Shown: one piece after another, positions 49,763 to 57,334 of the stretch
Numbering within the stretch: the stretch's first letter is position 1
Layout of the letters: each line of letters opens with the position of its first letter
Source of the DNA: an uncultured Bacteroidales bacterium
Lineage (GTDB): Bacteria > Bacteroidota > Bacteroidia > Bacteroidales > SZUA-534
Assembly: GCA_902790595.1 (NCBI GenBank)
Contig: CADASL010000011.1
Span: 35,861 to 99,860, forward strand
Direction of reading: 5' to 3'
DNA length: 64,000 nucleotides
Position numbers and translations under genes: made by a program
The notes under the pieces: model-generated
Databases searched by the model: none
Told to the model about the DNA's origin: nothing
The model's input: only the letters and a program-made list of their open reading frames with translations

Positions 49763-51970
49763 TTATTTATCCTTCATCAGCACCTCAACCATCTTACGAA
49801 GCTCATCAACCTGCTTTTGCAAATCGTCTTTCTCGGCTTTCAGTTCTTTAATGGCCTCGATGAGGACGGGTGCGATGCCAACATAATCCACCGATTTGAA
49901 ACCTTGGGAATCGGTGTTGACAAGCTCCGGCAAAACCTCCTCAAGTTCTTGGGCAATTACGCCAATCTGTAGATTGTCGCCATATCCATAAACCAAACTA
50001 TCCGGATTTTCACCTTTAGCAGCAGCCATTTCCTCACGATTTTTCCAGTAATAAGTTACACCGCGCAACCGCAGCACCTTGTCCAAAGCTCCGTTGATGG
50101 TGGTTATCTCTTTTTTCAAGCGCACATCGGAATCTTTGGTAAGACTTCCTGTATATCCAAGGTTTCCATTTACTTTCAAAAGACTATTATCAAACTCTCC
50201 ATATATCAACGGGGTTGTAGTTCTGCTGTTAGCGATATAAAGTTTGTTGTCGCCTGTTGCGTTCATACCAGCCTCATTTCCGATAAATATATTGCCAGAG
50301 CCTACAGTGAAGTTTTCACCAGCACCTGCGCCTATAAATATGTTGTTAGAGCCCTGTTCAAAAGACCAACCTGCATAATAACCGAAAAATGAATTTCTTC
50401 GACCGGTTGTTGTTCCTGATGCACCATCTTTTGCTGTACCTGTATAATCACCTACAAAAACATTGCCTCCTCTGCCGCTGCCAGCGGTCGACTTATCGTC
50501 GTAGTTTAATCCGGATTGGTATCCAATAAATATGTTGCTCTTAGATTGCGTGTTACTATAACCTGCACGATAACCGATAAAAATGTCATTCGTTGCGGAG
50601 GTATTGTTGTCGCCTGACTCGGAATAACCATAGCCCGCATAATAGCCGATAAACACATTATTAGAACCAGTTTTATTGTATGAACCTGCTCTAGAACCCA
50701 CAAACGTGTTGTTATCGCCACTTTCATGCCATTTGCCCGAGGTTTGTCCTAAGAATGTATTATCATCTCCACTTTTATGAGCATAACCCGCATAATAACC
50801 AAAGTACGAATTATGATGCCCCGATGATGTTGCTGTGCTACTTTGGTTTCCTTCTGCCGGCCCACAACCTGCCATATCGCCCACAAACACATTACCTCCT
50901 TTGCGGTAATCGGTATTAGTCTTGTCATCGAAACTAAAACCCGCTGTATATCCGATAAAAACATTATGCATTGATTGTGTGGTTTTATAACCTGCTTGAT
51001 TTCCCAAAAACGTATTGTTAGTTCCGTATTTTTGGTTATATCCTGCTAAATATCCTATATATACATTATTTACACCCAAATCTCTTTCTTTACCACTGAT
51101 AGTTGTTTTTCCGCCAATATTGCTGTGACCTGCATCATTACCAATAAACACATTGTTAAAGCCTTCTGTATTAGCCCAACCTGCTTGGTAACCCATAAAC
51201 ACGTTATTCTGGCCAGTGTTATTGACTATGCCGGCGTTGTTTCCTACGAATGTGTTATTCTTACCAGAAGTTACTTTCTTTCCAGCATCATATCCAGCAA
51301 AGAAGTTTTGTGCTGTAACATTCATATAACCAGAGTTGCCATTTGCACCTTTCTCCGTTACAGCAAAACCACTCTTGTCTCTTGAGCCAGCCTTGCCTTC
51401 AACTCCGAAGCCGCTTTTGTTGCTGCCACCGTCAACATAAACGCGGGTACTGTCGCGGGTAACCTCAAGCACATCGGAATCGGCGCCCTTGGTTGCATCG
51501 CGGCCGGTTACCACAAAACCACTTCGACGGGCTTTCGATTCATCTGTATCGAATTTCACCTGAGTGCCGTCGGTGGCCACCCTCAAATAATCGGTCGGGG
51601 CGTCCTTAGTTGCGTCGCGGCCCGTTACCACGAATCCGCTACGGCGGGCCTTGCTGCTGGCGGTATCATCGATAAAGACTTTTGTGCCCTCTCCATCGAC
51701 TGCTAAAATACTATTTGTGGCGCCGCCCTTGGTGGCATCGCGGCCAGTTACCACGAATCCGCTCCGACGGGCTTTACTATCTCCTTCGTCGACAAACACT
51801 TGCGTGCCTTCGCTGTTGATTGCAAAATAATCGTTGCTCTCGCCGCCTTTCGTCGCATCACGACCGGTTACTACGAATCCGCTACGGCGGGCCTTGCTGC
51901 TGGCGGTATCATCGATAAAGACTTTTGTGCCCTCTCCATCGACTGCTAAAATACTATTTGTGGCGCCGCC
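49763..51970 (-). other. C-terminal reading frame of the fibre gene (repeats, ~17 N-x-F-x-G-x-x-A-G beta-roll units, Peptidase_S74 domain from about 50131)
   Basis: NNTFVGNNAG, NNVFMGYQAG etc.; S|DVRLKKEI...LRGVTYYW...IGVIAQELEEVLPELV...VDYVGIAPVLIEAIKEL. The track start at 52075 is out-of-frame sequence of the upstream half. Confidence 0.75.
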
Positions 51971-52270
51971 CGAATCCGCTCCGACGGGCCTTGCCATCTC
52001 CTTCGTCAACAAACACTTGCGTGCCTTCGCCGTTGATTGTGAAATAATCGTTGCTCTCTCCGCCTTTCGTCGCATCGCGGCCGGTTACAACGAATCCGCT
52101 CCGACGGGCCTTGCTGCTGGCGGTATCATCCACAAACACTCTCGTTCCCTCTTGGTTCACAGCAAAATAATCGTTGCTGTCGCCATTCTTTGTGGCATCG
52201 CGGCCGGTAACCACAAATCCGCTGCGGCGGGCTTTTGCCGATTCATCGACATAAACGCGCACGCCCTCGG
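51485..52270 (-). repeat. Seven tandem ~40-aa coding repeats (KARRSGFVVTGRDATK core), including a perfect 99-bp direct repeat (51630-51728 = 51873-51971)
   Basis: Direct alignment of copies; 243-bp offset between the identical segments. Confidence 0.9.
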
Positions 52271-53339
52271 GATAAACGGCAAACACCAGGTTGCCATTAC
52301 GGTCTTTCACCGCAAACAGCGGCTCGTCAATGCTGTCGTTGGCAGCGGAACCTGGCTTCACGTCGAGTTTCTTAACCGAAATTTCATCGGTAGCAACCCA
52401 GGTTGTGCCGTTGTGAACCAACGTCTGCCCTTTGCTTCCCGACACCTGCATACCGTCGCGGCCGGGTTCGCCCTTATCACCTTTCTCTCCCTTTAAATTA
52501 TATGTGTACTTCTGTCCGTTGGTCATTGTAAACGTCAGAGCACCCGTTGAGTCCTGAGCGACATTGGCAATTCCGTTGCCGGCGGCGCCTGCCGGTGCCT
52601 CAAACTCAACCCAGTTGCCGGCATCGTTTCGCGGTGCGGTGGCGCCGGTAATGTTGTCGTTCTTTGCAATCCACATTGTGTTGAAAGTTGAGTCTCTCCT
52701 ACCCGGAGCAAACACATAATCGCCGGTACTGTATGTCGAGTCCAACGCCCACGCGCCTCTGTTGGTAAGCCCCACTCCGGCATCGCCCTTGTCGCCTTTA
52801 TCTCCCTTCGGGCCTTGCGGGCCGACACCACCTTGCTCACCCTTCTCGCCTTGCAAACCCTGCGGGCCCTGAATACCTTGCTCGCCTTTGTCACCCTTGT
52901 CGCCTTTCGGGCCTTGCGGACCTGGTTGGCCGCCGTTGGCTGCATAATACGCGTACGGAACCGACTGCAGTTTGGTTCTTCCCATATCGGTATAGTTTGT
53001 GCCGCCCTTCGTGTCCAACTCAACACGCATCCACACGTTGCCGGAGCTCCAGTCAACACTGGCCATCGACATATTATTGAGCGGAGTTCCTTCACCTACG
53101 GTTACCGACAGCACTCCGTATCCGTTAGTTGTTGTGGTATGCGTCTCGCAGTACATCAACTGCGCGCCGGTTTCATCGGTAAGCGTAACGCGAAGACCGA
53201 CATTGGCGTCTGCCACCAGCGCACCTTCAGAATCTCTCACCACAGCCTGATAGCTGAAGCCGCCCGACTGGGCAATAGCTGTTGCAGCAGTCAAAAACAT
53301 TGCCGCCAGAATCATTGTTTGCTTAAAAAACTTTCTCAT
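51954..53339 (-). CDS. N-terminal fragment of the fibre gene (signal peptide, FSYQAVVRD domain, collagen-like Gly-X-Y, first repeats)
   Basis: MRKFFKQTMILAAMFLTAATAIA-Q; GPQGPKGDKGDKGEQG... at about 52770-52932; ends prematurely ...KARRSGFGRRHK*. Confidence 0.75.
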   Translation of the reverse strand: MRKFFKQTMILAAMFLTAATAIAQSGGFSYQAVVRDSEGALVADANVGLRVTLTDETGAQLMYCETHTTTTNGYGVLSVTVGEGTPLNNMSMASVDWSSGNVWMRVELDTKGGTNYTDMGRTKLQSVPYAYYAANGGQPGPQGPKGDKGDKGEQGIQGPQGLQGEKGEQGGVGPQGPKGDKGDKGDAGVGLTNRGAWALDSTYSTGDYVFAPGRRDSTFNTMWIAKNDNITGATAPRNDAGNWVEFEAPAGAAGNGIANVAQDSTGALTFTMTNGQKYTYNLKGEKGDKGEPGRDGMQVSGSKGQTLVHNGTTWVATDEISVKKLDVKPGSAANDSIDEPLFAVKDRNGNLVFAVYPEGVRVYVDESAKARRSGFVVTGRDATKNGDSNDYFAVNQEGTRVFVDDTASSKARRSGFVVTGRDATKGGESNDYFTINGEGTQVFVDEGDGKARRSGFGRRHK

Positions 53340-54119: not shown

Positions 54120-54461
54120 ATGGGCAGCACAAACAAACCACGCGTTATTAAAGACTTTGACAAAATCAGCGACGAGATGCGCGACCAAGTCAAGGCAATG
54201 TATCCCGACGGGTTCAACGCGTATCTTATTTCGTTCACAAACAAAGACGGCCAGCTCTGCTGCGGTCTTCCGTTCGAGACCGAAGACCGTATGTATCTGC
54301 TTCGCATTAACAACGAAGACACCGGAAATATTGACGACGACGACTTTTTCGGCGATGACAGCAAGGGCGATGATTTGGACGACAATGTTGATTTCAGCAG
54401 CATTTCCGATGACTCAGAACCTGAAGACGACAGCGCATCGTCGCTCAACGACTCGTTCTGA
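54120..54461 (+). CDS. Conserved Bacteroidota hypothetical protein with a strongly acidic C-terminal tail
   Basis: KPRVIKDFDKI...YPDGF...ISFTNKDG...PFETEDRMYLLRI followed by a D/E/S-rich tail. Confidence 0.8.
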   Translation: MGSTNKPRVIKDFDKISDEMRDQVKAMYPDGFNAYLISFTNKDGQLCCGLPFETEDRMYLLRINNEDTGNIDDDDFFGDDSKGDDLDDNVDFSSISDDSEPEDDSASSLNDSF

Positions 54462-56257: not shown

Positions 56258-57334
56258 TCAATTTTCGACAGTTTTGTTCCGGCTGTCTTTCTCGCAAACC
56301 AAAGCATCTCTGTAACAATCACTTAGCAATTCGCCTTGAACCATACAAATATTCAGTTGCATAGTTGTGAACTGACTGACGACCGTCACAAGGGGCAAAT
56401 TGTAGAAGTGCTGCCGCTCCCAATCGCGGTTGTAGATGCGGTTGTTGAGTTTCAGAACGTTGGTGTTGAGGTTGGCGCGGACAAAATCGGCGAGCCATTT
56501 GTCGTCGGGTTTAACCTGCTCCAGCATAGCGCCGCGATAAACATCGAGAGCCTCGTGCAAACCCTTGGCCTTCATACGTTTGCGGCCAAGCATAAACCGC
56601 CGCACCGAGTTAATCTCAACATTCGACTGAATTGGCACCAGATTGACAAACAACGCTGAATCCTGCAGCACCTTCTTCCCCTCAACATAGGCCACAAGGC
56701 TGATTTTCAGGTCGTCGATGTATCGAATCATATTATCGCTCTCGGTATTGATAATATCGGCTTTTTGCTTGATTACCAGCAGAATGGAATCGTTGGCGCA
56801 GAGACTGTCAATCTGGGCGGAAATGTGCTGGTTGCGCTTTTGCAGCGACACAAGCTGAAGCAGCGCCTCACGGTCCGAGACGGTGAACGAGCGCAGTATC
56901 GGACGGTGAACCAAGCTGGTGAGCATCCCGATAACGATGAACACACTAAAAAGAACTATCGGGAACCACGAGTCGATGCTGGTCTCGTAGAACCTCCGGC
57001 GCATAAAAATCATCAGCAGCATTGCCAGCAGCAGGAACGAGCCGCCGACATAAATCAACACCTTGTTGCCGCCCCAGCTCACCATAAAGAACGTCACTCC
57101 CATCAGGAAAATGAAGAATCCGAGAATGCTCAAAACAATTATCAGCCCGATGCGGTTCTCCTGATGCTCCTTGAAAATCACAATGAAAAGCGGAATGAGA
57201 TAGCCCAGATTGAAGGTGAAAAAACCGACAAGGAACAGCACTTTCCCGGCCACAAAATCCTGATTCATAAATATCGCGCCAAGCAGCAACAGGAGCGATG
57301 ACAAGTATCCCCAAACTAAAGTGTTGTGTTTCAT
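56258..57334 (-). CDS. Inner-membrane protein: GldL-like TM hairpins fused to a GldM/PorM N-terminal-like helical domain
   Basis: About five TM helices (LGAIFMNQDF...; MGVTFFMVSWGGNK...) then SDNMIRYIDDLKISL...FMLG...KAKGL...YR...WERQHFYNLPLVTVVSQFTTMQLNI. Confidence 0.65.
   Translation of the reverse strand: MKHNTLVWGYLSSLLLLLGAIFMNQDFVAGKVLFLVGFFTFNLGYLIPLFIVIFKEHQENRIGLIIVLSILGFFIFLMGVTFFMVSWGGNKVLIYVGGSFLLLAMLLMIFMRRRFYETSIDSWFPIVLFSVFIVIGMLTSLVHRPILRSFTVSDREALLQLVSLQKRNQHISAQIDSLCANDSILLVIKQKADIINTESDNMIRYIDDLKISLVAYVEGKKVLQDSALFVNLVPIQSNVEINSVRRFMLGRKRMKAKGLHEALDVYRGAMLEQVKPDDKWLADFVRANLNTNVLKLNNRIYNRDWERQHFYNLPLVTVVSQFTTMQLNICMVQGELLSDCYRDALVCEKDSRNKTVEN

Follow-up and report, generated by a model that had tools for sequence, protein, structure and literature searches.

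How does a gene resembling a phage tail fiber come to stand among housekeeping genes of a bacterial chromosome, and what does it encode? The question is raised by a gene at positions 49763 to 53339 of a 64,000-nucleotide stretch of DNA (here called the window) from an uncultured Bacteroidales bacterium (GenBank assembly GCA_902790595.1, contig CADASL010000011.1, positions 35,861 to 99,860). The gene lies on the minus strand and appears in the open reading frame (ORF) list as ORF1 (53339-51954, 461 amino acids [aa]) and ORF2 (52075-49763, 770 aa). A preliminary description had regarded it as a "domesticated" gene for a self-chaperoning, phage-tail-fiber-like surface fiber, either an adhesin or a phage decoy. 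We conclude that the locus probably belongs to the S74 subgroup of the mosaic adhesive trimer (MAT) fiber superfamily, as a Bacteroidales member with an exchanged tip and a frame-broken allele. This reading draws on the observed architecture, homology, paralogue repertoire, synteny, cassette swap and frame break. The gene is thus one of a superfamily that had already been described, not a one-off, and nothing was found in support of a phage decoy.

MATs were defined by a signal peptide, an invariant ∼130-aa beta-rich N-domain without a homologue in the PDB, a long trimeric fiber, variable tips, and a location at the cell surface (PMC10769870). In Bdellovibrio bacteriovorus, 13 of the 21 MATs end in an S74 domain with an SDxxxK motif and 8 end otherwise (Caulton et al. 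2024, PMC10769870); the surface location of Bdellovibrio MATs was demonstrated, and self-cleavage of Bd3182 was shown by expression together with a Ser-to-Ala control (PMC10769870). At the locus studied here, a signal peptide, a beta-rich N-domain, a variable tip within a multigene repertoire, and tip swapping were all found.

The N terminus carries the key link to this superfamily. The signal peptide was called by reading its n-, h- and c-regions, with a cut between AIA and Q, from the sequence and not by a dedicated predictor. It contains no lipobox Cys, its residues 3 to 22 were helical in an AlphaFold 2 (AF2) model, and the "AQ" at the cut position was nearly invariant in an alignment of 28 relatives. 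The constant N-domain that follows begins GGFSYQAVVRD, so that both N-terminal elements named in the preliminary description were present. The NCBIfam family NF053851 (Bdello_MAT_N) matched the isolated N-domain with an E value of 1.2e-12 (47.9 bits) and ORF1 with an E value of 3.2e-11, and it was the sole family matched in 28 of the 28 aligned relatives. The N-domain was modeled by AF2 as a seven-strand beta-sandwich with a mean predicted local distance difference test score (pLDDT) of 88.8. No real PDB fold match to this model was obtained (best E value, 1.5e-3; template modeling [TM] score at most 0.40), in agreement with the MAT report of Caulton et al. 2024. Because scores of 43 to 48 bits fall below the 60-bit cut-off of NF053851, the protein is by sequence related to, and outside, the Bdellovibrio subfamily; we call it a superfamily relative and not a subfamily member. 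As a separate observation, ∼120 nt within the N-domain (53040-53159, minus strand) were only 80 to 83% identical to the closest strain, compared with 95 to 100% for the rest of the 5' part; this patch may be a small second recombination tract.

The C terminus places the protein in the S74 subgroup. PF13884 (Peptidase_S74) matched with an E value of 1.4e-15 and 57.8 bits (cut-off, 22), confirming the C-terminal domain that had been proposed to be cut between S and DxRLK. The match starts exactly at the S of SDVRLK, an SDxxxK motif in which the Ser is encoded at 50131-50129 and the Lys lies five residues on; the cut is predicted after the Ser. The S74 sequence matched PDB entries 6f45 (gp37 of phage S16; 1e-7) and 7dc3 (MyRF; 3e-5). 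By Foldseek, the best match was 7dc3 (E value, 6.7e-5; TM score, 0.54), followed by the endosialidase chaperones 3gw6 and 3gud. The C-terminal helix was found at residues 511 to 545 of the AF2 model.

The genome contains nine N-domain loci, comprising four genes that end in S74, four that end otherwise, and one remnant. The S74 genes are the one in the window, C1 (3156 aa), C12/C4 (at least 2089 aa), and C2; the non-S74 genes are two at C8 (772 and 1329 aa), C7 (4289 aa), and C6 (3590 aa). The remnant (180 aa, signal peptide and N-domain) lies ahead of the C2 fiber gene. This nine-gene repertoire of S74 and non-S74 members mirrors that of Bdellovibrio. Giant intact paralogues with the same N-domain lie at C7:115148-128014, C6:35416-46185, and C1:160033-169503. 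The C2 gene (C2:467125-471017) has a YadA-head-type cassette and carries a 20-nt deletion and a 35-nt tandem duplication within its 40-aa repeats. Another fiber gene is split over contig ends (C12:93741-94169 and C4:1-6270), and therefore repetitive fiber genes cause some of the assembly gaps.

Beyond this genome, thousands of relatives were found among 5.8 billion proteins, those with names being "tail fiber domain-containing protein" of Salinivirgaceae, Tenuifilaceae, or Bacteroidales. Nearly all complete relatives have a signal peptide followed by an xYQAVxR motif at about residue 25, and homologues without S74 are also among them. The homologues are thus overwhelmingly signal-peptide-bearing cellular proteins and not prophage structural genes, as the surface-fiber proposal had anticipated. 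An N-domain profile matched 31,532 cluster representatives at 50% identity among 1.84 billion proteins (13,577 at E values of ≤1e-30), and the domain occupied residues 1 to 140 in nearly all of the 150 listed matches. NF053851 matched 32 of 201 evenly sampled Bacteroidota genomes (28 of 110 genera), its cut-off being reached in none of the 201. Beyond Caulton et al., no literature on Bacteroidota members of the family was found.

The beta-roll had been suspected of being an exchangeable tip module, and comparison with close relatives showed that it has indeed been replaced. The cassette in this gene (cassette A) has no DNA similarity to the cassette of sister strains. Relative to the closest strain, L027, identity was 96.7% upstream of the gene and 92% within the gene to ∼51320, fell to noise level from ∼51320 to ∼50240, and was high again over the 101-nt LYIANS...KVNG junction; past the junction came a 281-nt gap and then 98% identity through S74, GNAT, and GlnA. 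The sister species G014 showed the same breakpoints, with homology to G014 and L027 ending at ∼51306-51320 and returning at ∼50258-50240. The gap corresponds to a 281-nt (94-aa) tip domain that sister strains have at ∼50169, just past the junction motif, and that is absent here. Another beta-roll, cassette B, is common to the seven intact orthologues (P0001, P0002, P0137, P0138, P0139, G014, and the L027/L028 alleles), all of which have the 94-aa tip domain except P0002, which has a different S74 domain instead. Tips have been exchanged on a constant base, in line with the preliminary description, between strains whose flanks are 92 to 98% identical. The nearest protein relatives of cassette A among the 5.8 billion proteins were only 32 to 42% identical, and no DNA match to a donor was found in 30 related genomes or in the genome's own paralogues. 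Programmed inversion (a shufflon) was considered as a source of tip variation and rejected: no meaningful inverted repeats surround the gene, and because of this the tip change is a recombinational replacement and not an invertible switch.

The base composition of the tip is also distinct. The G+C content was 0.35 to 0.44 over 50150-51350 and 0.53 to 0.59 upstream, in line with the AT-richness reported for the beta-roll. G+C at third codon positions (GC3) was 0.32 in cassette A, 0.52 to 0.61 in the N-terminal half, and 0.63 to 0.75 in neighboring housekeeping genes; because GC3 is also low, the dip is more than an effect of amino acid composition. The fiber gene as a whole (GC3, 0.32 to 0.61) lies below its housekeeping neighbors, and the tip-domain insert of the sister species has a GC3 of 0.27.

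The tip repeats proved to number 18 units of the NxFxGxxAG type, where about 17 had been counted, at a spacing of mostly 17 residues. In the AF2 model they formed short strands, one each 17 residues, with a pLDDT of 70 to 88 over part of the roll. A YadA-head-like fold had been proposed for them. No YadA_head (PF05658) match was obtained in this protein by Pfam at an E value of 0.01; other members of the family, the C2 paralogue among them, do carry true YadA_head cassettes. Because of the missing YadA_head match, the moderate model confidence, and the lack of a significant fold match, the YadA-like label is unconfirmed for cassette A. Precomputed annotations of relatives list PF28096 and PF26696, which the local Pfam scan did not report on P0008 or P0038.

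Between the N-domain and the tip lies a composite shaft. The collagen tract was confirmed by Pfam (PF01391; E value, 6.8e-9; aa 137-188; above the cut-off) and delimited as a Gly-X-Y run by regular expression. Its length varies among strains: this gene has 54 aa, the tracts of P0001, P0138, and G014 are longer, and a length polymorphism relative to L027 lies at 52919-52854 on the minus strand. This length difference is an in-frame polymorphism typical for such tracts. The knob motifs recur in relatives; the Pfam scan gave no family for the knob segments, and the neck had no family match in Pfam or PHROG. The KARRSGFVVTGRDATK-type repeats are present in seven copies of 40 to 41 aa each, with DNA periods of 123 and 217 nt, and intact orthologues have seven to nine copies. 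The 40-aa repeats had been called novel; their presence was upheld, their novelty was not, variants being found throughout the family. Collagen Gly-X-Y tracts and S74 domains both imply trimers.

Table 1. Positions in the window of the fiber gene and its parts
Feature	Position	Strand	Remarks
Fiber gene span	49763-53339	minus	Two overlapping ORFs in different frames
Sec signal peptide MRKFFKQTMILAAMFLTAATAIA, aa 1-23	53271..53339	minus	Predicted signal peptidase I cut before Q24
Constant N-domain, aa 24 to ∼135, GFSYQAVVRD...LQSVPYAYYAA	52935..53270	minus	MAT-type base module
Collagen-like Gly-X-Y tract, aa 137-190	52770..52931	minus	18 triplets; Pfam PF01391
Two small knob-like segments (GAWALDSTYSTGDYVF...WVEF; GIANVAQDSTGALTFTMTNGQKYTYNLKG), then second short Gly-X-Y run	52446..52769	minus	Second run at aa 284-298
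Conserved neck (QTLVHNGTTWVATDEISV...EPLFAVKDRNGNLVFAVYPEGVRVYVD) ahead of the repeats	52236..52445	minus	Kept across the relatives compared
Seven ∼40-aa repeats (KARRSGFVVTGRDATKGG..N..L.V...GT.VF.D)	51404..52235	minus	Third repeat truncated
Frame break	51954..51990	minus	Junction 51970/51971; ORF1 stop TAG at 51956-51954
Beta-roll cassette A	50240..51320	minus	18 NxFxGxxAG units at 50267-51307; internal duplication of ∼140 aa
Conserved junction motif NKLYIANSRTTTPLIYGEFDNSLLKVNG	50158..50258	minus	
Peptidase_S74	49919..50131	minus	PF13884; intramolecular chaperone, self-cleavage domain
C-terminal helix, coiled-coil-like, LIEAIKELKAEKDDLQKQVDELRKMVEVLMKDK, and stop codon	49763..49918	minus	

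The preliminary description had treated the span as a single gene, alluding to a defect only by its mention of a "frame-restored construct." The DNA reads otherwise. The third copy of the 120-nt repeat is 26 nt short compared with neighboring copies, and the alignment with L027 has a 26-column gap at the break. ORF1 meets its TAG 14 nt past the junction, the remaining protein is in the frame of ORF2, and ORF2 by itself has no signal peptide. The read-through product is 1191 aa, and adding back 26 nt gives exactly 1200 codons. Same-slot orthologues are open at the break site (7/7). The exact 461-aa product of ORF1 was recorded from its own contig only and the identical GNAT neighbor on 13 contigs, which indicates that the break is private to this assembly. 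Programmed frameshifting across the break was rejected on reading the sequence, since the stretch from the junction to the ORF1 stop contains no slippery heptamer. If the assembled sequence is correct, the strain can make no more than a secreted 461-aa stump (N-domain, collagen, knobs, and about two repeats); because such a stump lacks the tip and the chaperone, the allele would probably be a pseudogene. Alternatively, the gene could be intact in the organism, the 26-nt deletion being an assembly or polishing artifact in a near-perfect tandem repeat, and the full 1200-aa fiber with cassette A would then be made. We regard this as possible but rather unlikely. The 120-nt copies that host the break are ∼90% identical, two fiber genes of this genome sit at contig ends, and the intact orthologues together with the restored count of exactly 1200 codons fit an artifact; the odd non-triplet indels of the C2 gene, in a like type of repeat, could be a repeat-associated technical fault or real decay. 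However, longer and more repetitive paralogues were assembled without a frame break, namely C1 (with 15 such repeats and 675 aa of collagen), C7, and C6. In addition, the junction shares at most 1 to 2 nt with the intact repeat unit, which would not be a join that a k-mer graph makes without supporting reads.

The remaining alternatives concern the nature of the protein. That it is a remnant or domesticated tail fiber of a prophage or tailocin, possibly a phage decoy, is suggested by its C-terminal 770 aa: ORF2 (repeats, beta-roll, and S74) matched 1011 phage records, mostly tail fibers or tail spikes (e.g., of Pelagibacter phage HTVC112P), and PHROG tail families matched the segment of collagen and knobs (aa 137-305, to which phrog_819 and phrog_6320, tail or tail-fiber families, align), the beta-roll, and S74, a classic module of phage tailspikes. 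The low GC3 of the tip half relative to host genes points the same way. The phage identities, however, are at most 34%; ORF1 had no phage match, the N-domain and 40-aa repeats were left uncovered by PHROG tail families, and these parts, with the signal peptide, lack a phage counterpart and define a cellular family of >31,000 clusters. Neither phage structural neighbors nor the absence of a signal peptide, as would be expected of a prophage tail fiber, was found: no phage genes were seen in the window, and synteny of the slot between MaoC and GNAT extends over strains and to the sister species. The preliminary description was right to place the gene outside a prophage, among housekeeping genes (GNAT, glutamine synthetase III, MaoC, and phosphofructokinase [PFK]), and we consider a phage origin of this kind highly improbable.

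It is equally improbable that the protein is the cargo of a known display route, either as a type Vc trimeric autotransporter adhesin or as an adhesin of the type IX secretion system (T9SS). Some relatives have YadA_head repeats and a few have Por_Secre_tail, the genome encodes T9SS cargo, and a GldM_1st-like gene lies 3 kb off. The hallmarks of type Vc autotransporters and T9SS cargo were nonetheless lacking in the protein even at permissive thresholds, as had been noted earlier: neither a YadA anchor (PF03895; Pfam, E value of 0.01) nor a T9SS sorting domain (Por_Secre_tail PF18962, TIGR04183, or TIGR04131; Pfam E value of 0.01, NCBIfam E value of 0.1) was matched, and the C terminus consists of S74 and a helix. 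PF18962 served as a positive control, matching two other proteins of the genome at 3e-12. Moreover, the head that varies stands at the C terminus and the constant part at the N terminus, an order opposite to that of autotransporters, and the C terminus is predicted to be cleaved off. Two small proteins, encoded at C8:13346-13831 and C8:95610-96077, are secreted proteins of 161 and 155 aa with a Por_Secre_tail domain (Por_Secre_tail E values of 3e-12 and 4e-12) and are paralogues, 31% identical to each other. Each gene lies directly upstream of a non-S74 fiber gene (772 and 1329 aa), so that two of the nine fiber genes in the genome have such a neighbor; the products are candidate T9SS-delivered partners or anchors for fibers. 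No Por_Secre_tail gene adjoins the fiber gene in the window. A conserved neighbor as exporter was likewise sought and dismissed, nothing recurrent lying beside this gene and recurrent neighbors occurring only at other paralogues. Among relatives with a like beta-roll, P0166, P0174, and P0192 have precomputed PF18962 matches, and P0174 carries both PF18962 and S74; some family members may use the T9SS directly.

Assignment to the MAT superfamily is itself open to several objections. The NF053851 scores (43.3 to 47.9 bits) are below the curated cut-off of 60, and the match spans positions 3 to 106 of a 162-position profile that was built for the Bdellovibrio subfamily. The AF2 model of the tip half is a mediocre one (pLDDT, 65), and no PDB entry significantly matched the beta-roll in it. 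The model is of a monomer; the trimer state, cleavage, surface exposure, and binding are projected from homology. An assembly error could account for the frame break. The organism is probably no predator, so the prey-recognition function of Bdellovibrio MATs is not simply transferable. Finally, the passage of a folded trimer across the outer membrane is a known open question of the whole MAT family, Bdellovibrio included, and the unexplained export remarked on in the preliminary description is part of it; for Bdellovibrio, binding of the N-domain to an element of the surface is presumed (PMC10769870).

On the MAT interpretation, a mechanism can be proposed by homology with the Bdellovibrio proteins, from which we infer trimerization, self-cleavage, surface display, and adhesion. 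The protein would be exported by Sec and its signal peptide cut before Q24. The S74 chaperone domain would then register three chains from the C terminus and detach itself by a cut behind the Ser of SDVRLK. The result would be a long fiber with its constant N-terminal beta-sandwich at the cell surface, from which the shaft of collagen, knobs, and 40-aa repeats would project a variable, ligand-binding beta-roll tip; the ligand would probably be a glycan.

The closest known counterparts are the S74 MATs of B. bacteriovorus, such as Bd3182. Like them, the protein has a signal peptide directly before a ∼130-aa beta-rich N-domain (by profile match), a fiber of ∼1000 aa or more, a C-terminal S74 with SDxxxK, a repertoire of S74 and non-S74 members, and swapped tips, and its anchoring and export route are as unexplained as theirs. 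It differs in its host, a probably nonpredatory member of the Bacteroidales, in an N-domain score under the subfamily cut-off, in its frame-broken allele, and in its collagen tract, knobs, and 40-aa repeats, which were not described in the Bdellovibrio proteins. Its tip is a beta-roll of 17-residue NxFxGxxAG units, whereas that of Bd3182 is a beta-helix with capping loops; the Bd3182 capping-loop motif VG(G/N)..P...L is absent from this protein. Supplementary Table S3 of the MAT report lists MATs of the Fibrobacterota-Chlorobiota-Bacteroidota (FCB) group, including Salinivirga cyanobacteriivora and a collagen-like Saprospiraceae protein (PMC10769870). These (S. cyanobacteriivora L21SP5_00641, the Saprospiraceae protein, and an S74-like Dokdonia protein) belong to the same phylum and have collagen-like and S74-like tips noted; they are listed only as examples of predator-associated lifestyles, and we liken them by description and not by sequence.

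Other systems resemble parts of the protein. The fibers of phages (K1F endosialidase, 3GW6; T5 pb1, 4UW8; S16 gp37, 6F45; and HTVC112P) share S74 by sequence and fold; the beta-roll and S74 align with phage fibers at 26 to 34% identity over ∼65% of ORF2, and the collagen and knobs match PHROG tail families. Phage fibers differ in having no signal peptide and an N terminus seated on the baseplate, whereas here the first 461 aa are without a phage match and the gene is chromosomal and syntenic. The intramolecular chaperone autoprocessing (ICA) domain of MyRF (PDB 7DC3), a trimerizing, self-cleaving S74-type domain, ranked first among structural matches to the C-terminal domain (30% identity); MyRF, the eukaryotic myelin regulatory factor, is a membrane-bound transcription factor and not a fiber. 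YadA-type trimeric autotransporter adhesins have similarly repetitive Gly/Asn-rich beta-roll heads, and YadA_head occurs in sister members and in the C2 paralogue; unlike them, this protein has no membrane anchor, the opposite polarity, and no YadA_head match.

The protein is a fairly ordinary member of a family already described in 2024; its gene is of the kind annotated as "tail fiber domain-containing protein" and is broken in this assembly. MAT fibers were described in 2024 as a prey-recognition kit of Bdellovibrio, and this locus adds evidence that they abound in ordinary, probably nonpredatory Bacteroidales, with nine copies here, >31,000 clusters, and about one-sixth of the sampled Bacteroidota genomes. 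The clean natural tip exchange between near-identical strains is useful for mapping the part that sets binding specificity. Two questions of the family, how a Sec-exported trimer passes the outer membrane and what the partner of the N-domain is, could be put to a Bacteroidales model with a known T9SS. More speculatively, and with considerable doubt on our part, MAT-type fibers may be no specialty of predators and may serve Bacteroidota at large, rumen Bacteroidales included, as a surface system that varies between strains. The N-domain would then act as the handle of an export route that puts a folded trimer on the outer membrane, perhaps docking on small T9SS-delivered partners; tips would be swapped by homologous recombination in conserved flanks; and frequent inactivation within the 40-aa repeats would be a crude on/off switch under pressure from phages or host.

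The genomic setting is that of a resident chromosomal gene. The flanking genes encode GNAT, a type III glutamine synthetase, MaoC, an acidic 113-aa ORF, a PPi-type PFK, a GldM_1st-only protein, and a GAF protein; farther along the window are ORFs judged from size and N-terminal sequence alone to resemble rpoB/rpoC, ribosomal proteins, EF-Tu, and a BamA-sized protein. The slot of PFK, 113-aa gene, MaoC, fiber, GNAT, and GlnA is kept in G014 (metagenome-assembled genome CAMJCK01), in GCA_016648615.1, and in two metagenome scaffolds of the European Nucleotide Archive, with intact alleles of 1129 to 1300 aa. Because the slot is conserved across relatives, the fiber gene is a vertically inherited chromosomal gene and not prophage cargo. 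Ahead of the gene, 62 nt from the ATG, a TACCTTTG motif at 53408-53401 fits the Bacteroides −7 consensus, TAnnTTTG; the fit is a consensus match only.

Two neighbors merit mention. At 56258-57334 (minus strand), a 358-aa membrane protein matched only the N-terminal domain of GldM (PF12081; E value, 1.8e-17); its gene stands apart from any gldKLMN operon, and its position is conserved in relatives. The 113-aa ORF at 54120-54461 (plus strand) has a very acidic, Asp/Ser-rich tail and no Pfam match, and a gene of the same size was called between MaoC and PFK in three relatives.

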